Assembly: GCA_044348085.1 (NCBI GenBank)
Contig: JBIKTM010000005.1
Span: 14,563 to 78,562 of the forward strand
Length of the DNA stretch: 64,000 nt
Direction of reading: 5' to 3'
Origin: Candidatus Methylacidiphilales bacterium
Lineage (GTDB): Bacteria > Verrucomicrobiota > Verrucomicrobiia > Methylacidiphilales > Verrucolacustridaceae
Numbering within the stretch: position 1 is the stretch's first letter; each line of letters opens with the position of its first letter. Both the position numbers and the translations under genes were made by a program. The notes beneath the pieces are model-generated. The model ran no database searches, had not been told where the DNA came from, and was given only the letters and a program-made list of their open reading frames with translations. Below, piece by piece: positions 15,044 to 37,196 of the stretch.

Positions 15044-16411
15044 ATGGCATTTCGGTTTCCATGTTTGCTCGGGTTGATCTGCTTCAGCGGGGCTTTTGCC
15101 CAAGAAGGTAGTGTTCCTGTCTTTCGCTTAGGCATCGATGTATTAGCGGATCGGGGTTTTCAGGATTTGAGGGGAAAGCGGGTAGGGTTGGTGACGAACC
15201 CATCGGGAGTTGATGGGAAGGGAGTGCCGACTTGGCGAAGGTTCCGGGATGCTGAAGGCGTAAACTTAGTGGCTTTGTATGGGCCAGAACACGGGGTTTT
15301 TGGGAAAGTTGGTGCGGGAGATAAAGTTTCGGGTGAGAGGCACGGAGAGGATCAAAACCAAGACGGAAAAATTTCGAAGAATGAAGAGACGGGGATCAGG
15401 GTTTTCTCGCTCTATGGGGATACGAGGAAACCCACTCCCAAGATGCTGGATGGTGTCGATGTGCTGGTTTACGACCTCCAGGATGTGGGGTGTAGGTCGT
15501 ATACGTATATCAGCACATTGGGGTTGGTGATGGAGGCAGCACAGGAGAGGGGAGTCGAAGTAATGGTGTTGGATCGTCCGAATCCTCTAGGAAACTTTCG
15601 CGTGGAGGGTCCGCGTCCGCAGGGAGAAGGAGTCCTGACCTCCTTTATTGGGCAGTACGACATTCCTTATGTGTATGGGCTTACGGTAGGGGAGCTTGCC
15701 AAATGGATTAACGAAGTTCATTTGAGGCGCCCGTGTAGTTTGTCAGTGATTCCCATGAAGGGGTGGAATCAGAAGATGACTTGGGAGGATACTGGACTGA
15801 AGTGGGTTCCCACTTCACCCAATATTCCGATCACTCGTTGTGCGCGAGGGTACGTCGCAACTGGGTTCTTTGGGGAGTTGGGCGTTAGCAATGGAGCCAA
15901 TCCAACGGGAGTACCCACGACGGGGTTGGATGGAACGGTGGTTCAGCCGTTTGATATCTTTGCGCTCGAGAATGTGGATGCGGAGGAGCTTTGTCGGAAA
16001 ATGACAGAGTGGGGATTCAACGGGGTTAAGTTCACTCCGTTTCGCTTCAAACCGCCGACGGGTAAGTATCGATCCGTTGTCATGGCAGGGGCACGAGTCG
16101 CAATCGATCCGCAGGCTCCAGCTAATATTACGGCCATCAATATGGCGGGTCTGGAGTTTCTGAAAAAGCTTTTACCCAAAAAGAGGTTTTTCTCGGATGC
16201 GGAGAATATGTTGATGTTTGATAAGCTGAATCGAGGCCGACAGACAAGGAAGGCAGTTGAGGGGGGGATGAGCGCAAGGCAGATTGTGGCCAGTTGGGAT
16301 GTAGGTGTGGCTAAGTGGCGAGAAGAGAGAAAGCCGTACTTGCTGTATCCGGAGAGTCCATTGCCGACACGAAAAGTCCCGGCCACGGGGTCGGCAAGGC
16401 TCAAGCCGTAA
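15044..16411 (+). CDS. namZ: Exo-beta-N-acetylmuramidase NamZ (DUF1343) family protein, secreted
   Basis: Signal peptide; GKRVGLVTNPSG, YGPEHG, SLYG, DLQDVGCRSYTY, VLDRPNP, YGLTVGELA, WVPTSPNIP. Confidence 0.88.
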   Translation: MAFRFPCLLGLICFSGAFAQEGSVPVFRLGIDVLADRGFQDLRGKRVGLVTNPSGVDGKGVPTWRRFRDAEGVNLVALYGPEHGVFGKVGAGDKVSGERHGEDQNQDGKISKNEETGIRVFSLYGDTRKPTPKMLDGVDVLVYDLQDVGCRSYTYISTLGLVMEAAQERGVEVMVLDRPNPLGNFRVEGPRPQGEGVLTSFIGQYDIPYVYGLTVGELAKWINEVHLRRPCSLSVIPMKGWNQKMTWEDTGLKWVPTSPNIPITRCARGYVATGFFGELGVSNGANPTGVPTTGLDGTVVQPFDIFALENVDAEELCRKMTEWGFNGVKFTPFRFKPPTGKYRSVVMAGARVAIDPQAPANITAINMAGLEFLKKLLPKKRFFSDAENMLMFDKLNRGRQTRKAVEGGMSARQIVASWDVGVAKWREERKPYLLYPESPLPTRKVPATGSARLKP

Positions 16412-16416
16412 ATTTA

Positions 16417-16544
16417 GGTAGGGGCGGGTCTATAACCCGACTTTTCTGAGGGGTTTAGAAGTGCTATAAAGCATTGAAGAGGATGGTGTTAAAGAGGGGA
16501 TTAGGAAAGATGGAGAGATTTGAAAACGCTGCAAAAAAGCGAAG
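16417..16544 (+). repeat. Repeat A, copy 1 (5' of the Sel1 gene)
   Basis: By-hand ungapped alignment of 16433-16530 with 18917-19014 gives about 78/98 identities; starts with GTAG plus a CGGG..CCCG mini-hairpin. Confidence 0.9.
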
Positions 16545-16606
16545 TAAGAGGATTAACCTGTTTTTTTCAGTTCGCTACGGAAGAACTAGAAGGTAATGAA
16601 TTAATA

Positions 16607-17953
16607 ATGGAGCTAATGATTTTAAGAGGATTTGCTTTTCTCTTGTTCCTTGTCACATCCTCCCATTCAGAAGAAAAATATGAACTACAGAGCTATTCAC
16701 CGGAGCTTCTGAAAAAAGCAGAATCTGGAGATCCTAAAGCGCAGTTTTTGGTTGCAAAGTATTTACGGCTCGGGAAAGGAGTTTCTAAGAATGAGCACGA
16801 GGCCATAAAATGGTATATGCAAAGTGCCAAGCAAGGTCATACAAAATCCATGAACTCCTTGGGCGGGTACTATCTAGAAAATAAGGTTGATTCCCCGGAG
16901 ACAGATGCAGAAATCGCTAAAGCATTGCCTGAGATGTCATTCTCAATAGCGAAGAAAGATAAGAAGCAACCTCATAATCTTGAACAAGCCGTTTATTGGT
17001 TTTTCTTGGCGGCAGACGGAGGGAATCCACGAGCAAAAAGAAATATTGGTTTTTTATACAGTAAGGGGATTGGGCTGGAACAGAGCGATATTGATGCAGT
17101 TAAATGGTGGAAGGAGGCCGCTTTGGAGGGCGAAGTTTCTGCTCAATGTAATCTGGCCAACGCTTACCTAAATGGACGCGGATGTGAAAAAAACGAATCA
17201 AAAGCATTTGAGCTCATGTGTATGGCCGTCAACAAAACTCCCCAAGATGAAATCGACGAAAAAAATATAGCTGATGCTCAGGCCGAATTAGGTCGCTATT
17301 ATTATGAGGGTATAGGAACCAAAAAAAATCTAAACGATGTTTTCAAGTGGGCTACAAAGTCTGCTCAAAATGGATCAGCAATAGGTCAAAACAACCTTGG
17401 GAACGCTTATTACAATGGTTATGGAACCGAGAAAAATATATCTAACTCAATCATATGGTATCAAAAGTCAGCTGCACAAGGGAATGACGATGCCATGTAT
17501 CAATTGGGCTGGTTAAGCGCAAATGGAATCGGCCTTGAGAAGTCCAATGATAAAGCTTTTAGCTATTACAAAAAAGCTGCGGATAATGGAAACCGTGAGG
17601 CTCAAAATAACCTAGCTAACCTTTACTCAAAAGGGCTTGGCGTGCAAAAAAACGAAGCGGAAGCATTTCGTCTCTGGTTGAGATCATCTCTACAAACAAA
17701 CACCTTTGCGTTTGCGAATTTAGGTTTGTGCTATGAAAAGGGGACTGGTGTTAAAGTTAATATTTCCGAGGCCTTTCGTTGGTATGAAAAAGGCGCCTTG
17801 GCCGGTGAGCCAAGCGCGGAATACTATTTAGGCAGATGCTATGAAAGTGGTAATGGTGTTGATAAAAATCTAGATACGGCAAAGCAGTTGTATCTTAAGG
17901 CGGCGGACCAAGGGCTTAAGGAGGCAAAAGAGGCATTACGGAGCCTCGAATGA
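16607..17953 (+). CDS. Secreted Sel1-like repeat (SLR/TPR) protein
   Basis: About ten repeats of type AQxNLGxxYxxGxGVxxxxxxAxxWYxKAAxQG; hydrophobic N-terminus after M30/M33 of the ORF; AT-rich (sample line 17221: 24/60 GC). Confidence 0.92.
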   Translation: MELMILRGFAFLLFLVTSSHSEEKYELQSYSPELLKKAESGDPKAQFLVAKYLRLGKGVSKNEHEAIKWYMQSAKQGHTKSMNSLGGYYLENKVDSPETDAEIAKALPEMSFSIAKKDKKQPHNLEQAVYWFFLAADGGNPRAKRNIGFLYSKGIGLEQSDIDAVKWWKEAALEGEVSAQCNLANAYLNGRGCEKNESKAFELMCMAVNKTPQDEIDEKNIADAQAELGRYYYEGIGTKKNLNDVFKWATKSAQNGSAIGQNNLGNAYYNGYGTEKNISNSIIWYQKSAAQGNDDAMYQLGWLSANGIGLEKSNDKAFSYYKKAADNGNREAQNNLANLYSKGLGVQKNEAEAFRLWLRSSLQTNTFAFANLGLCYEKGTGVKVNISEAFRWYEKGALAGEPSAEYYLGRCYESGNGVDKNLDTAKQLYLKAADQGLKEAKEALRSLE

Positions 17954-17989
17954 GAATAAGTGTCATCTGAACGCTCCCATTCCTCAACC

Positions 17990-18120
17990 AATCCCCAACA
18001 AAACCCGTAGCAGAGAGGCCTGGCGGCCGAACCAAGTGGAAGGGGGCAGGTGGAAGGTGAAAGTTGGAAAGACTTTAAATTGACTGCGGCCTTCCACTTT
18101 CCACCTCCTGCCTTCCTGCA
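17990..18120 (+). repeat. Repeat B, copy 1: long imperfect hairpin 3' of the Sel1 gene; possible bidirectional terminator
   Basis: GGAAGGGGGCAGGTGGAAGGTGAAAG (18038-18063) pairs with CTTCCACTTTCCACCTCCTGCCTTCC (18091-18116); second copy at 19934-20071. Confidence 0.88.
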
Positions 18121-32309: not shown

Positions 32310-32951
32310 TCAGGGTTGCAGAGGGCAACCGGCGGTGGGGGCTTGGGGAATTCCCGAGAGGCCTGGCAGGTCAGGAGAGAGAGGGGGGAGTTGGAGTCGG
32401 GAAAAGAGATCGTTCAAACCGGCCAGAGAGATTCCGGGCCAGATGGCAGAAACCAGGCCATCCGGTTGGGCGAGAATGAAGCATCCGGATTTGGTAATTC
32501 CCAAGCGGTGGCCGAGCTGGGAATAGGGATCCCGGAGGGCCGGAAGTTCTTTTCCGGTTTTTGTCATGAACTCATGAATCTGGTCCGGTGTTCCCGCGAA
32601 AAGAAAAAACCAGGTGGCTTTTGTTTTAGTCTTTTCCATCGCAACGGCGAAATATTTCGCAAACTCGAGACTGCAGTCGCAGTCGTGGGAAAAGAAAACG
32701 AATACCACGGGCTTTTCTTTGGGGAGTGAGGGCCATGGGACGACCTGGCCATCCATTCGATATAGGACGCTCTGGTGGATGTTTTGACCTGTCGATTGGT
32801 TAAGGGTTTGTAGGTCGGAAGGGGGGGAGGGATGACGGCGTGAGATCTTTTCGTTGGGAGCGGTGGGGGGGTTGGAATCGGGTCGGGTAAGCCCGTAGAT
32901 CAAGGCAGCCAGAGCGACGAGAAAGAGGGCGATGGGCCAGGGGGATTTCAC
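32310..32951 (-). CDS. Membrane-anchored thioredoxin-fold (AhpC/TSA/redoxin-like) protein with CxC motif
   Basis: N-terminal TM, KPVVFVFFSHDCDCS, LRDPYSQLGHRLGIT, C-terminal GCPL. GTG 32951 preferred to TTG 32981. Confidence 0.7.
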   Translation of the reverse strand: MKSPWPIALFLVALAALIYGLTRPDSNPPTAPNEKISRRHPSPPSDLQTLNQSTGQNIHQSVLYRMDGQVVPWPSLPKEKPVVFVFFSHDCDCSLEFAKYFAVAMEKTKTKATWFFLFAGTPDQIHEFMTKTGKELPALRDPYSQLGHRLGITKSGCFILAQPDGLVSAIWPGISLAGLNDLFSRLQLPPLSPDLPGLSGIPQAPTAGCPLQP

Positions 32952-32956
32952 GGGAA

Positions 32957-34369
32957 TCAGTGGGAGGGCATGGCGATCCAAGGAGGGACAACACTTCCCT
33001 GTATCCAGCCATTGCGGCGACGGACTTCATCCTCCGTGAGGCGGGGATCTTTCAGATAGATGTAGTAGTCGTCCTGCCTTTCGAAGAGGTCGCCTTTGGC
33101 TTCCCGGGTTTCGCTGACCACCATAGTACTGGTGATCCGAATGTGGAAATAACCACGGATCAGTTCATCATACTTTGACGGAAGCAGTCTGAATTGAAAG
33201 GGGATGAGGGTTTTAGTTGGGATAACTTCCCGGATCTTTGTGTCGGACCCCTCGGGAGTCTCATGAGGAACGGAATCCCAACGCCCGTTGGCCTGATAGA
33301 AAACACGGATGGAAGGGCCAAGGATAAAGAAGCGACGGGATGAGTCATAGTTTTGGAGGAACAGATTCGCACGGACATTACCGTCGCCATTGGCATCGAA
33401 GGAGTCCACATCGGCCCGGAGTTGGCGAAAGGCGATTTCCTCAGTGATGCGTTTCTTTTCCTGTTTCGCCCAAAGTTGGCGTCCTTGTGACCAGGCGATG
33501 ATCCGGTCAGTCGAGTAAAGGAGTGACGCTCCCAAAAGCAGGGTACCCAGAAAGAACGAGGCTGGCCCCCGCCAATCCCCGACGGGTGCGGGTTGGGGGG
33601 GGTCTTGGGTCGCCAATCCTTTGGGGGGTTTTTCGAAAACCGGCCCCTGCCTTTCGATCAGGGAAGAGCGAACAGGTGTGGCGGAGGGTTTTTCCGTGAG
33701 AGCTAATTGTCCAGCAGACATCTGGAATACTCGATCGGCAAGCGAGGCGAGTTGGTCGCCATGGGTGACGGCGAAGATCGCGAGTTTCCGTTCGTCCCGA
33801 AGTTCTTGAAGTACTTTGAGAATTTCTTCCTCAGCCAAGGGATCGAGATTGCTGGTTGGTTCATCCAATAGGAGAAGGGCGGGTCCATATTGGAGGGCGC
33901 GGGCCAGGGAGACGCGACGCTGTTGTCCTCCGGAAAGTTCATTGGGAAAGGAATCCCAACGTTCTCCCATCCCCAGACGGGTCAGAAGTTTTTGGGCCCG
34001 GGAGTAGGCCTGATGTTGGGATTCGCCGGTAAGCAGCCCCGGTAGGGCGGCATTATCTAGGGCGGTGAGTCCGGGAAGAAGAGAGTTGGTTTGGAGCATG
34101 AAGCCAATTCGGCGGGAGCGGAGTTGGGCAAGTTTTCGGGGGGAGAGTTGGAGGAGGTCCGCTCCCTCAAGGTGGAGTGTGCCCTGGTCGGGTCGGGCGA
34201 GTGCTCCCAAGAGGGCCATCAGGGTGGATTTTCCCGAACCGGAACGACCACAGACGGCGACGAATTCACCCGGCTGGATTTCTAGGGAAACCTGGTGGAC
34301 AGCGGCGATGGAACCCCGTCGGGCAGGATAGATCCGGCTGAGATTTTGGGCGGAGAGGATAACGCTCAT
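32957..34369 (-). CDS. ABC transporter ATPase (LolD/MacB type) fused to a TM helix and an extracytoplasmic domain
   Basis: Walker A GRSGSGKS, LSGGQQRRV, Walker B LLLLDEPT, then a linker, a hydrophobic helix and about 180 aa ending WIAMPSH. Confidence 0.9.
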   Translation of the reverse strand: MSVILSAQNLSRIYPARRGSIAAVHQVSLEIQPGEFVAVCGRSGSGKSTLMALLGALARPDQGTLHLEGADLLQLSPRKLAQLRSRRIGFMLQTNSLLPGLTALDNAALPGLLTGESQHQAYSRAQKLLTRLGMGERWDSFPNELSGGQQRRVSLARALQYGPALLLLDEPTSNLDPLAEEEILKVLQELRDERKLAIFAVTHGDQLASLADRVFQMSAGQLALTEKPSATPVRSSLIERQGPVFEKPPKGLATQDPPQPAPVGDWRGPASFFLGTLLLGASLLYSTDRIIAWSQGRQLWAKQEKKRITEEIAFRQLRADVDSFDANGDGNVRANLFLQNYDSSRRFFILGPSIRVFYQANGRWDSVPHETPEGSDTKIREVIPTKTLIPFQFRLLPSKYDELIRGYFHIRITSTMVVSETREAKGDLFERQDDYYIYLKDPRLTEDEVRRRNGWIQGSVVPPWIAMPSH

Positions 34370-35595
34370 TCGTTATTCTCCCGGAGAAGTTGGTAGACCT
34401 CACGGCCCGCAAGACGCCAGGAAGGAAGCAGGGCGCCGAGACCGGCGACCAGAGAGCAAAGGATGAGGCTCAGGAGAGCGGCAAAAATCTGGGAGGAGAA
34501 AGAGGGGAGTTCGAAGGTGATTCCGCGGGAGGTGAGGAGATATCCGAAAGTTCGGACGAAGACGGCCAGTCCGGTGGCACCCAGGAGAACGCCAAAAAGA
34601 GCACCCAGGAAAGCGCAGAGGGCGGCTTCCATTGCCAGCCACAAGGAGAGTCCCATTCGAGAAAGGCCCATAGCGAGGAGTAGTCCGAGTTCCGCTTTTC
34701 GTTCAGCCACGATCCCGGCGTAGACGACAAGAATGAGAAGTCCGCCCATCCAAAGGCCAACGATGGTGAATGCGATCGAGCCGGTTAGTATGGTTCGGAT
34801 CGATTGGCGGACCTGAATTCCGAGTCCAGATCCGCTAATGACCTGAACTTCAGGAACAGAGGAAAGGGCGAAACGGACATGTCCCGCCCCGGCGCCGGGC
34901 GACAAGCGAAGGAGAAGGGCAGAGGCGGAGCCGCTGACCGGAAGGGTTCCGAATGTTTGGACTCCGTGGGATCTGGATTCATTCGCAAGTTCGTCCACGG
35001 TAGAAAAAGATCCAAAGACTGATCGTTCTGTGGGGCCCACACCCGTTAGGTCGAGTTTTCCCCAGACGACCAAACTTTTTCCAAAGAAATTCATGGTTGA
35101 GCCCAAGGGTTCTGGTCGGCGTCCACCGATGAGGACATCGCCTTGGGAGAACGGGCGGGGCAGGTGTTCTCTGATCCAGGGTTGTAAGGTGAAATCAGTG
35201 GAAGGATCGAAGGCGATCAGGTCGGTTTCGCCATGGCCTTCATCCGAGGGGATGGAGAAGTGGCGTTGGAGGGAGACTTTTTCCAGCCCGGGGAGAGTTT
35301 CGATTTGTTTAAAAACCGATGGGTCAAGTTGAGGGGCGTTGGGTTCCCCCGTGAGAAGGGCGGCGGTTAGGTTGTGGGTAGTTCCTTTGGAGAGGATGAG
35401 AAGATCGGCCCCCAGACGGTCGAGGGAGGTTTCGAGTCCACGGCGAATCGAATCTCGAACGACCAGAGTGAGAAAGATCGAAGCGGAACCGATGGCGACG
35501 GCGAGTGCTAGAAGGAGGTAGCGACCGGGGCTTCGTCGGGTCTCCTGGAGGACCAGACGAAATCCTAAGGGGAAAAGGTGGAATCCGTGGGGCAG
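34366..35595 (-). CDS. MacB/FtsX-family ABC permease (start codon non-canonical or lost)
   Basis: Hand translation shows the frame open from 35613 to the stop at 34366. The N-terminal TM segment RRSPGRYLLLALAVAIG..LDRLGADLLIL lies upstream of the ORF-track TTG (35106). CTG 35595 taken as provisional start. Confidence 0.8.
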   Translation of the reverse strand: MPHGFHLFPLGFRLVLQETRRSPGRYLLLALAVAIGSASIFLTLVVRDSIRRGLETSLDRLGADLLILSKGTTHNLTAALLTGEPNAPQLDPSVFKQIETLPGLEKVSLQRHFSIPSDEGHGETDLIAFDPSTDFTLQPWIREHLPRPFSQGDVLIGGRRPEPLGSTMNFFGKSLVVWGKLDLTGVGPTERSVFGSFSTVDELANESRSHGVQTFGTLPVSGSASALLLRLSPGAGAGHVRFALSSVPEVQVISGSGLGIQVRQSIRTILTGSIAFTIVGLWMGGLLILVVYAGIVAERKAELGLLLAMGLSRMGLSLWLAMEAALCAFLGALFGVLLGATGLAVFVRTFGYLLTSRGITFELPSFSSQIFAALLSLILCSLVAGLGALLPSWRLAGREVYQLLRENNE

Positions 35596-35600
35596 GGTGG

Positions 35601-37196
35601 TTAGACCGTGCAGCTACGACTGAATTTCATCTCCTCCACTTTGGAGGGAACGATGACGCAGTCGTGGTGTCCGCCGAAGTTGGGCATATAGCCGACCTGT
35701 TCTAAAGTATCCTGCCGGAAGACAAAGGCGCCGGATTCCATTCGTTGGAATCCCGAAAAGATCACCAAGGCATATTTTCCATCATAGGTTGTGGCTGTGG
35801 TCTGAGTATCGACTCCGACATTTCGGAACTTTTTGACGACTTTCCAGTCCTTGGTGCTCACGACATAAACATCCGATTTCATCGGCTTTGGTCGGAGAAC
35901 GGTGAAGAAGCATTTTGAACCATCGATGGAGAAGTTGACGTGGAAGGGGGAGGGATATTCGCCCTGCCACTCTTTGTCCTTGATGAAGGTAACCCGCTTC
36001 CATGCCCGTGGATCGTCGCTGGAGGTGTCGAATACGGCAACGTTGTTGGCGCGTAGATTGTTCATCATAACCAGGTGATTGCCAGAAGGATTGAATCCGG
36101 TCTCGTGGATGGGGTTGCCGACGGAAGGTAGGGTGACTTCCCAGGTGTCCGGGCTGTTCGAGACTTTTTTCACGGGCCAGTTGTCAGCGAGACCTTCGTT
36201 CGCCATCACGTAGCAAACGGGCTCCATAGAGGTGCGGTCGATGATAAAACCGCCTCCGCACATGCGAAGGCCGGCGATGGAGTAGCGGTTGCGCGGGTCG
36301 TGCAGGCAAAAATCCAGACCCGTCAGGGTATGGGGGCTAGCACCAGGAGTTTGGCCTTTCTCGACGAGGAGTTCTGCCATGGGAGCCATCTCGTAGTTAA
36401 GTTTGTTTCCCTTCGTCCCGTAATAGTCGTACTTCCCGTCTTTTCCTGGGGCCAGTTTAATGAGTCGGATGGTTCCGCCCTTCGTCCAAGTTTCTGCCAG
36501 AACCTTCGAGTTGGGGACCCAATCGCCCCGGAAGGAGGTAAGGACTTTGGTTTTATCCTGGCCGCGGGCCCGGGAGAAAAATCCCACCACATCCTTCTGA
36601 CCGTCGGCGCAGGCAAAACCATTTCCATCTGGGAAAGGGACAGTATGGACGCCTAAACCGATTCCCGTCGTTTCGGAAACATCCTCAAGGAGTTCCATCT
36701 GATTTGATTTTCCATCGTACCCGACGCGGTAGATGTGATTCCCCATTCCGTATTTGTCGAGCATGCCGTGCTCTTTGATTTTCGTATTGAGGCCGTACAT
36801 TAGGACATTATCGCCACCTTGGGTGGAGTTAATGAATTCAAAGCCTTTGTAGGGGTCTCCGCTATCGGCATAGAAGGCAGCCAAATGGTGGGAGATCGGG
36901 CAGGAGTCCCCGTAGTTCCAGTAGGAAATCCATGAGAGGGTTTTTTGAGTTCCCAAATCGACGGCATGGGTTCCTCCGCCCAGCTTTTGTGGGGTGAGAT
37001 AGATATATTTTCCAAGGGATTCGCGGATGCCTTGGTAGACGGCATCTTCGATTAGGATCCCGTCTTCGTTTTTAGCGGCGTAGGAGGTACCAGGAAGGTA
37101 GCGGGTTAGACCGGCACCCGTAAGCCCGGCCAGACCAGCGAATCCGTAATAAAAGAAGCGACGACGGCTGATTTTTTCAAGGTGGGCATTCGACAT
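35601..37196 (-). CDS. Tat-exported thiocyanate dehydrogenase (TcDH)-like copper beta-propeller protein
   Basis: Twin-Arg signal SRRRFF. Motifs match TcDH as recalled: PQKLGG, WNYGDSCPISHH, DPYKGFEF, GLGVH, DGQKD, GNKLNYE, GLD, IHETGF, YPSPFH, TYDGK, GHHD. Confidence 0.88.
   Translation of the reverse strand: MSNAHLEKISRRRFFYYGFAGLAGLTGAGLTRYLPGTSYAAKNEDGILIEDAVYQGIRESLGKYIYLTPQKLGGGTHAVDLGTQKTLSWISYWNYGDSCPISHHLAAFYADSGDPYKGFEFINSTQGGDNVLMYGLNTKIKEHGMLDKYGMGNHIYRVGYDGKSNQMELLEDVSETTGIGLGVHTVPFPDGNGFACADGQKDVVGFFSRARGQDKTKVLTSFRGDWVPNSKVLAETWTKGGTIRLIKLAPGKDGKYDYYGTKGNKLNYEMAPMAELLVEKGQTPGASPHTLTGLDFCLHDPRNRYSIAGLRMCGGGFIIDRTSMEPVCYVMANEGLADNWPVKKVSNSPDTWEVTLPSVGNPIHETGFNPSGNHLVMMNNLRANNVAVFDTSSDDPRAWKRVTFIKDKEWQGEYPSPFHVNFSIDGSKCFFTVLRPKPMKSDVYVVSTKDWKVVKKFRNVGVDTQTTATTYDGKYALVIFSGFQRMESGAFVFRQDTLEQVGYMPNFGGHHDCVIVPSKVEEMKFSRSCTV

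Follow-up and report, generated by a model that had tools for sequence, protein, structure and literature searches.

Does a protein that has kept nearly the whole active site of thiocyanate dehydrogenase (TcDH), except for one histidine that is replaced by glutamine, still work as such an enzyme? This question is raised by a minus-strand gene of Candidatus Methylacidiphilales bacterium (GenBank assembly GCA_044348085.1), which encodes a protein of 531 residues and lies in a 64,000-nt stretch of contig JBIKTM010000005.1 (positions 14,563 to 78,562 of the forward strand; hereafter "the window"). An earlier interpretation, drawn from the letters of the DNA and from reference residues of T. paradoxus TcDH (the sequence-only reading), had proposed that the Cu1 and Cu2 sites and the catalytic base are intact, that Cu3 is altered, and that oxidation of thiocyanate should not be assumed. 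Our follow-up leads us to favor, at a probability of about 0.6, that the protein is a functional periplasmic copper oxidoreductase of the TcDH family, which is exported by the twin-arginine translocation (Tat) route and belongs to an old and widespread Gln-type sister clade, in which the equivalent of His482 was replaced once and the replacement was held by selection.

A TcDH-type propeller with glutamine at the position of a copper ligand

When the protein was compared with all PDB chains using phmmer, every match was a TcDH (E-values from 1e-127 to 1e-111), with alignments to the Pelomicrobium and Thioalkalivibrio enzymes spanning residues 55/60 to 530. The best natural relative with a solved structure, by sequence (E 8e-127) as well as by fold, was TcDH of P. 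methylotrophicum (pmTcDH; 8Q9X), which is about 43% identical; TcDH of T. paradoxus (tpTcDH, EC 1.8.2.7; 5F75, 5OEX, 6UWE) followed with E-values of about 1e-112. The AlphaFold2 model (mean pLDDT 86.8, pTM 0.86) gave the same picture: the top 20 Foldseek matches were all TcDH chains, with target-normalised TM-scores of 0.92–0.94 and root-mean-square deviations of 1.5–2.4 Å, and the next matches did not exceed 0.62. The fold shared with tpTcDH (5F75/6UWE; TM-score 0.92–0.93, deviation about 1.7 Å) comes with a sequence identity of about 38–39% in the structural alignment. No family was matched in a Pfam scan. The sole NCBIfam match, hydrazine synthase beta at 14.8 bits, is meaningless and reflects generic propeller similarity. 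Selenium-binding protein/methanethiol oxidase, the UniRef label of a Tautonia homologue, was likewise rejected, there being no Pfam match and no SELENBP-type structure among the 50 best fold matches.

The protein shares a putative Tat signal with tpTcDH. The motif S-R-R-R-F-F at residues 10–15, followed by a hydrophobic stretch, was read from the translation; the Pfam TAT_signal model did not match the protein, so that the assignment is based on this reading, and the signal-peptide part of the model has a pLDDT below 50. Presence of a Tat signal in TcDH has been described (PMC5328954).

Active-site residues were assigned in 5F75 numbering, to which the chain numbering of 6SJI was converted by adding 78, as verified on K103, H135/136, H482 and H527/528. 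The published list was taken from the Fig. 4 legend of PMC6504805, and Phe436 was included as a pocket residue according to the titles of mutant PDB entries. Twelve of the 13 published residues are kept. The metal-binding set is represented by seven of its eight members, namely His135/His136 (H103/H104, motif SHH), His206 (H184, GLGVH), Asp314 (D295, GLD), His381 (H364, IHE), His437 (H419, PFH) and His528 (H511, the second His of GHHD), and the eighth, His482, is replaced by Gln465. The catalytic and substrate-pocket set is complete, comprising Lys103 (K71, PQK), Gln156 (Q126), Glu288 (E269, NYE), Phe436 (F418), Asp529 (D512) and Arg544 (R527). The same listed residues are shared with pmTcDH, where His447 is the exception. 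Around the exchanged position, the DMHT motif of tpTcDH pairs with DTQT (D463-T-Q465-T), with D463, T466 and a YDGK motif flanking the glutamine. The alignment is free of gaps at this site against both solved TcDHs, and it places no other histidine in or beside column 482. Hence, the T. paradoxus residues that the sequence-only reading had named are all found where it placed them, and its reference list agrees with the legend mentioned above. Its description of the DTQT motif, whose Gln465 we find encoded by CAG, was also borne out, as was its view that the rest of the site, including the catalytic base, is intact.

We take His482 to be a ligand of Cu3 in TcDH, an assignment that was reportedly made by Tikhonova et al. 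in 2020. The claim of an altered Cu3 holds insofar as one copper ligand is changed, its attribution to Cu3 in particular being putative. The substrate sulfur contacts Cu2 and Cu3 in TcDH (PMC9456337).

The residue found in the natural protein has also been introduced by engineering, in tpTcDH H482Q (6SJI) and in pmTcDH H447Q (8YU5, 8YU6). 8YU5, which its entry title identifies as the H447Q variant, is the top match of the window protein by sequence and by fold. As the entry titles of 6SJI and 8YU5 name His-to-Gln mutants, the natural state has already been crystallised in the form of laboratory copies of both enzymes, which suggests that TcDH specialists have considered residue 482. These mutants differ from the natural proteins in that they carry a single substitution in a His-type background and lack the co-varying changes described below.

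Gln482 is a fixed signature of a sister clade of the characterised enzymes

To map the exchange, we assembled a census of 246 full-length family members, consisting of the closest database proteins, 119 relatives of pmTcDH and distant full-length representatives. Column 482 is Gln in 164, His in 80 and Glu in two of these sequences, i.e. the Gln-type outnumbers the His-type about 2:1 in the sequences sampled, and the other 12 active-site columns are almost invariant. Among the 120 closest database proteins (54–90% identity) the column holds Gln (119) or Glu (2), with the 12 other columns invariant. In a tree of 40 representatives, the His clade including pmTcDH and tpTcDH was supported with 99 and the large Gln clade including the window protein with 97–100; two more Gln lineages branch near the base. 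The window protein thus lies outside the clade of every characterised TcDH. All four distant outgroup lineages carry His. One of them comprises TcDH of Thiohalobacter thiocyanaticus, an organism that grows on thiocyanate (PMC6504805), which belongs to the same family but is only about 35% identical and has a different gene context (Cus system).

The His/Gln labels require two changes on the free tree, and none of 500 label shuffles needed as few, which puts the partition well beyond chance. Forcing all Gln rows into one clade was not rejected in the approximately unbiased test (p-AU 0.66) and gave a likelihood 3.3 higher; several independent origins of Gln are accordingly not required. Since all outgroups have His and a single Gln clade is allowed, the simplest history is one His-to-Gln change at the base of the sister clade.

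About 20 further columns split the two clades, e.g. Gln382 to Glu (beside His381), Trp452 to Leu, Asn459 to Ser and Gly292 to Met. Substitutions near active-site residues include those at positions 102, 104, 153, 154, 292, 382, 441 and 442. However, an enrichment near the active site could not be claimed, because about nine of the 20 columns fall within five residues of it against roughly 30% expected, which is too weak. The basal Gln lineages allow the changes to be ordered: Glu382 is older than the Gln change, and Leu452 and Met292 are younger. Met273 of the window protein (Gly292 in tpTcDH) was considered as a required partner of the glutamine. It is confined to the crown group and missing from the basal Gln lineages, from which we conclude that it is younger than the His-to-Gln change and not required. 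A compensating ligand was not found either, as the Gln clade has no conserved His or Cys that the His clade lacks.

Thus, the exchange noticed in the sequence-only reading is real but not peculiar to one protein, and the mapping of His and Gln states separates two clades. Gln482 is the fixed signature of a whole sister clade, an alternative site by design and not a lesion. As judged from its sequence and predicted fold, the window protein is a member of the TcDH superfamily, sharing fold, Tat motif, catalytic and pocket residues and the type of ABC operon (see below), but differing from TcDH proper in two respects, the full set of metal ligands and the placement among characterised enzymes. 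Neither the naturally occurring Gln clade nor its distribution or operon was found described in the literature searched.

The Gln-type gene is maintained by selection and transcribed

His (CAY) and Gln (CAR) codons are one third-position base apart. In 86 related loci, the codon at column 482 is CAG (65), CAA (20) or GAA (1), and CAY does not occur. As both Gln codons are in use and CAY never appears, synonymous change has happened repeatedly at this site while a change to His was never kept. The only alternative tolerated in the Gln clade is Glu, an oxygen donor of equal length. Comparison of the window gene with its orthologues within the genus yielded ratios of nonsynonymous to synonymous substitution (dN/dS) of 0.016–0.039 at dS values of up to 2.4, a pattern that places the gene under strong purifying selection. 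Of 25 species genomes in the genus, 18 carry an intact open reading frame (ORF), and most of the seven genomes without the gene are incomplete metagenome-assembled genomes (MAGs). Transcripts were detected as well: contigs of lake metatranscriptomes cover the enzyme gene at a word depth of 10–70, contig depth being a poor measure of expression, and contigs from four such metatranscriptomes show no difference at the Gln codon.

These data bear on the idea that the protein is a remnant of a TcDH, inactive or in decay after one of its ligands disappeared. Nothing but the missing histidine speaks for this reading, which is countered by dN/dS values of 0.02–0.04, by ORFs that stay intact across a genus of small genomes, by transcription, and by the presence of Gln in 164 of 166 Gln-clade sequences from several phyla with both synonymous codons in use. 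Purifying selection, intact orthologues and transcripts rule the pseudogene reading out, and we give it next to no credence.

The same lake metatranscriptome assemblies cover positions 35512–37167 well and the three downstream operon genes (32400–35500) hardly at all. This contrast suggests that the first cistron is far more abundant at steady state than the others, or that its transcript ends separately.

Carriers are widespread and are not sulfur oxidisers

A scan with one genome per species identified at least 335 species that encode a relative, and the best 80 are all of the Gln-type. These 80 include Pirellulales, Gemmataceae, Singulisphaera, Myxococcales, Nitrospirota, Melainabacteria/Obscuribacterales, filamentous cyanobacteria and Methylococcaceae; an additional Gln-type cluster is found in picocyanobacteria (Cyanobium, Vulcanococcus). 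Singulisphaera sp. GP187 and Ch08, Tautonia sociabilis, Methylolobus aquaticus and Methylotetracoccus oryzae are cultured carriers. Taxon names in MAG titles look unreliable: six loci with near-identical copies of this verrucomicrobial or planctomycete operon were deposited under the titles Akkermansia muciniphila, Aliarcobacter sp. or Candidatus Kuenenia stuttgartiensis.

The window host is a freshwater verrucomicrobium with a genome of 2.03 Mb, in contrast to the sulfur oxidiser that harbors tpTcDH. The gene was not found in 16 genomes from 15 other genera of the order, and the nearest relatives outside the genus are planctomycete genes with about 75% identity. This restriction to one genus of the order, together with the planctomycete affinity, suggests that the ancestor of the genus acquired the gene once by horizontal transfer and that its descendants, with genomes of 2 Mb, have retained it.

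Accessory genes shared between Gln-type and His-type loci

The TcDH-like gene is the first of four minus-strand genes that form an operon, being followed by a permease of the MacB/FtsX type, an ATP-binding cassette (ABC) ATPase fusion and a thioredoxin-fold protein with a CxC motif (Table 1).

Table 1. Features of the Gln-type operon in the window (positions counted from the first letter of the window).
Feature	Position	Strand	Basis
TcDH-family Gln-type protein, 531 aa, predicted seven-bladed beta-propeller	35601..37196	-	homology to solved TcDH structures
Tat signal peptide, residues 1-40	37077..37196	-	read from translation; putative cleavage between SYA and A
Gln465 codon CAG (His482 in T. 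paradoxus, His447 in P. methylotrophicum)	35802..35804	-	
MacB/FtsX-type ABC permease, about 396 aa	34366..35556	-	Pfam FtsX 2e-8, MacB_PCD 3e-5
ABC ATPase (residues 1-225) with linker, transmembrane helix and periplasmic beta-sandwich	32957..34369	-	Pfam ABC_tran 6e-33
ATPase tail domain, transmembrane anchor with beta-sandwich	32960..33586	-	homology to stand-alone proteins; model pLDDT 89.5
Membrane-anchored thioredoxin-fold protein	32310..32981	-	Pfam AhpC-TSA and Redoxin matches weak, below cut-off

The frame of the permease is open up to 35613, with no ATG, GTG or TTG near the N-terminus (35554–35613). Translation likely starts at the CTG at 35556, which is located 6 nt after an AGGA (35566–35563); several species of the genus also have CTG here, and in others a TTG precedes this position in frame by a few codons. 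The permease is 36% identical (E 3e-72) to the first permease of a His-type TcDH locus, and it directly follows the TcDH-like gene in 67 of 79 loci.

In the ATPase, the linker, transmembrane helix and beta-sandwich make up the C-terminal 245 residues, which end in WIAMPSH-COOH. The ATPase-tail fusion is kept in Planctomycetota, Melainabacteria and picocyanobacteria, and at least 60 loci from different phyla have permease plus fusion linked to the TcDH-like gene. Within the tail domain, L56 (start of LRAD), His148 and Pro207 are invariant in 15 sequences, and R57, Met206 and the C-terminal His209 occur in at least 90%. The homologues in His-type TcDH loci are stand-alone proteins of 213–224 aa (E 1e-29 to 1e-31; L087 14484-15155 and L088 13912-14550) that end in MPPH. 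No Pfam family matched the tail domain, and a fold search returned only generic beta-sandwiches with TM-scores of up to 0.5 and no copper chaperone. It is a candidate for the copper-handling part of the system.

In the thioredoxin-fold protein, His50 and C101-x-C103 are invariant, and a WPG loop and the GCP motif at the C-terminus are nearly so. The protein is homologous to AhpC/TSA-like genes upstream of the planctomycete orthologues (E 1e-16 to 1e-19). The gene is linked in 45 of 88 loci; in Verrucomicrobia it lies downstream of the enzyme gene, in Planctomycetota and Myxococcales upstream, and in the Melainabacteria loci it is missing. CxC reads CDC in Verrucomicrobia and a few planctomycete loci, and CPC in most planctomycetes. 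Methylococcaceae loci lack all three accessory genes.

His-type loci contain two permease/ATPase pairs followed by stand-alone tail proteins, as well as a histidine kinase and a sigma-54 regulator; a Pelomicrobium-like locus additionally has flavocytochrome c and cytochrome c genes upstream. A matching gene set was described for the Thioalkalivibrio TcDH locus (Berben et al., PMC5328954). Homologues of permease, ATPase and tail are thus common to both types of loci, and the thioredoxin-fold protein is not among these three. Compared with tpTcDH, the window operon likewise has MacB-type ABC genes and a tail-protein homologue downstream of the enzyme gene. It differs in that it has a single ABC pair rather than two, that the tail is part of the ATPase, and that linked fccAB, cytochrome c and sigma-54 regulator genes are missing.

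Neighboring ORFs were also clustered for all but three of the related loci retrieved. The permease, the ATPase fusion and the thioredoxin-fold protein were the only ones to recur beside the Gln-type genes; no cytochrome or other electron acceptor, sulfur-oxidation or cyanase gene did so. Copper genes are found in particular lineages. In Tautonia sociabilis, the basal Gln-type gene is part of an island for copper resistance, which also encodes CopB, Csp, a P-type ATPase, an efflux protein of the outer membrane and two multicopper oxidases. In picocyanobacteria, a multicopper oxidase gene comes after the operon, and a DUF411 gene is found nearby. Together with the fact that MacB-type pumps are exporters, these neighborhoods could be taken to indicate a role in copper homeostasis, i.e. 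a periplasmic copper-binding or cuprous-oxidising propeller that is served by a MacB-type exporter. We consider this improbable. In the window and in most other loci no copper-resistance gene is linked, and the catalytic Lys, Glu, Phe and Arg residues need not stay invariant in a mere binding protein. Moreover, according to PMC5328954 and PMC6504805, true TcDH loci carry copCD or Cus genes too, so that copper genes nearby are to be expected for any copper enzyme of this kind.

Two observations concern the base composition of the window. GC skew, calculated as (G-C)/(G+C), is positive in every 2-kb bin of positions 1–64000 (0.11–0.39), and the cumulative skew rises steadily; it stays positive even across the minus-strand operon at 32–38 kb, indicating an unusually strong strand bias without a switch. 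The GC content is 0.44 at 16001–18000 as compared to 0.50–0.57 elsewhere, and this segment may be an island or an RNA gene region.

What the Gln-type protein may do

The anion contacts Lys71 and Arg527, the base Glu269/His104 and Phe418 are untouched, and for this reason the chemistry is probably TcDH-like; the substrate may be thiocyanate or a near analogue. In the mechanism that we propose, the exported apo-protein would be loaded with copper by an ATP-driven machine composed of the ABC module, the tail domain and the CxC protein. The model for this step is NosDFY/NosL, as CuZ of N2O reductase is also borne by a periplasmic multi-copper propeller that needs an ABC ATPase/permease and a Cu(I) chaperone (PMC6530538). 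The parallel is one of analogy, since NosDFY belongs to the ABC-2 type and is unrelated to MacB/FtsX, and a NosD or NosL homologue is missing from the window operon. The propeller would still assemble a multi-copper site, in which Gln465 would provide the third copper with a side-chain oxygen ligand or a hydrogen bond in place of the imidazole nitrogen. Gln ligates copper through its side-chain oxygen in stellacyanin-type sites, where it lowers the potential; unlike the site considered here, such type-1 sites are mononuclear and belong to an unrelated fold, and the residue that Gln takes the place of is an axial Met rather than a His. An oxygen ligand would harden and retune the third copper, favoring Cu(II), lowering the potential and weakening the binding of Cu(I). 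Otherwise the logic of TcDH would be retained, with a small anionic S/N substrate positioned across the coppers, water activated by Glu269/His104 and a two-electron oxidation.

Would such a protein simply be an ordinary TcDH? In this case, Gln465 ligates Cu3, three coppers are bound and SCN- is converted to cyanate and sulfur at useful rates, either for the use of sulfur and electrons or for detoxification. The invariance of Lys103, His136, Gln156, Glu288, Phe436, Asp529 and Arg544 points in this direction, the non-metal residues among them being invariant throughout the Gln clade, and so do the TcDH-associated lineages that bracket this clade on the tree and the ABC and tail genes held in common with His-type loci. 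In addition, one carrier MAG stems from a thiocyanate bioreactor and encodes cyanase, and IMG labels many Gln-type members "thiocyanate desulfurase". On the other hand, no Gln-type member is among the characterised enzymes, and the carriers are heterotrophs, methanotrophs and picocyanobacteria instead of sulfur oxidisers. No cytochrome c, FccAB or cyanase is linked, and the perfect His/Gln partition with about 20 co-varying columns resembles a functional split more than neutral drift. We therefore regard an ordinary TcDH as possible but doubtful.

The same partition can be read as the mark of a copper enzyme with a different job, which would act on another small S, Se or N substrate or use O2 as acceptor, with two coppers or a remodelled third one, and thus represent a new activity. 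A sister clade with a fixed ligand change and clade-specific substitutions, several of them beside active-site residues, would fit this proposal, and ecology and gene context are unlike those of true TcDH. According to its entry title, 8Q9X shows pmTcDH with molecular oxygen. Yet neither the catalytic base nor the anion-binding residues have changed, an argument for chemistry much like that of TcDH, and no neighbor gene indicates another substrate. We entertain this possibility tentatively. In the strongest form of this proposal, the Gln clade would not be TcDH at all but a widespread periplasmic copper oxidoreductase with another substrate or acceptor, possibly O2, whose remodelled Cu3 site would be built by a dedicated machine of MacB-type ABC transporter, tail protein with its MPxH end and CxC thioredoxin; this, too, we rate as rather unlikely.

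Returning to the favored reading of a selected, functional Gln-type oxidoreductase of the TcDH family, several points weigh against it. The TcDH enzymes studied so far are few and all His-type. The genes for flavocytochrome c, cytochrome c and a sigma-54 regulator seen at His-type loci are missing from the Gln-type loci. The Tautonia island and the multicopper oxidase behind the picocyanobacterial operon fit copper handling as well, and the copper-loading role of the ABC module is put forward by analogy. Cyanase was found neither in the genome of the window nor in eight of nine other carriers; with cyanase not found in nine of ten carrier genomes, its co-occurrence was dropped as support for the acquisition of nitrogen from SCN-. 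This absence is not decisive, because Thioalkalivibrio is also described as devoid of cyanase (PMC6504805). Finally, should H482Q and H447Q turn out to be inactive or devoid of Cu3, a TcDH-like tri-copper mechanism would become less likely, unless the about 20 co-varying positions compensate.

Whichever substrate is used, the ligand change is the hallmark of an uncharacterised sister branch, and consequently the activity cannot be copied from the known His-type enzymes. The caution of the sequence-only reading against assuming thiocyanate oxidation was well placed, given the changed ligand and the position of the protein outside the characterised clade.

Significance of the Gln-type clade

Among the hosts of the Gln-type are abundant bacteria of fresh water and the sea, none of them sulfur oxidisers; automatic annotation already calls the protein "thiocyanate desulfurase". 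The question of its function is open to experiment, since cultured carriers, protocols for recombinant TcDH and deposited structures of His-to-Gln mutants are at hand. If the clade is not TcDH, the "thiocyanate desulfurase" calls in metagenomes would be largely wrong. If its members do not oxidise thiocyanate, a common copper enzyme of other function awaits discovery and present annotations mislead. If, however, they do, thiocyanate would be turned over much more widely than assumed so far, and a tri-copper redox site would be able to work with a Gln(O) ligand. In addition, the accessory genes common to both types of loci may, by analogy, reveal an unstudied system by which copper enzymes of this class mature at the expense of ATP.

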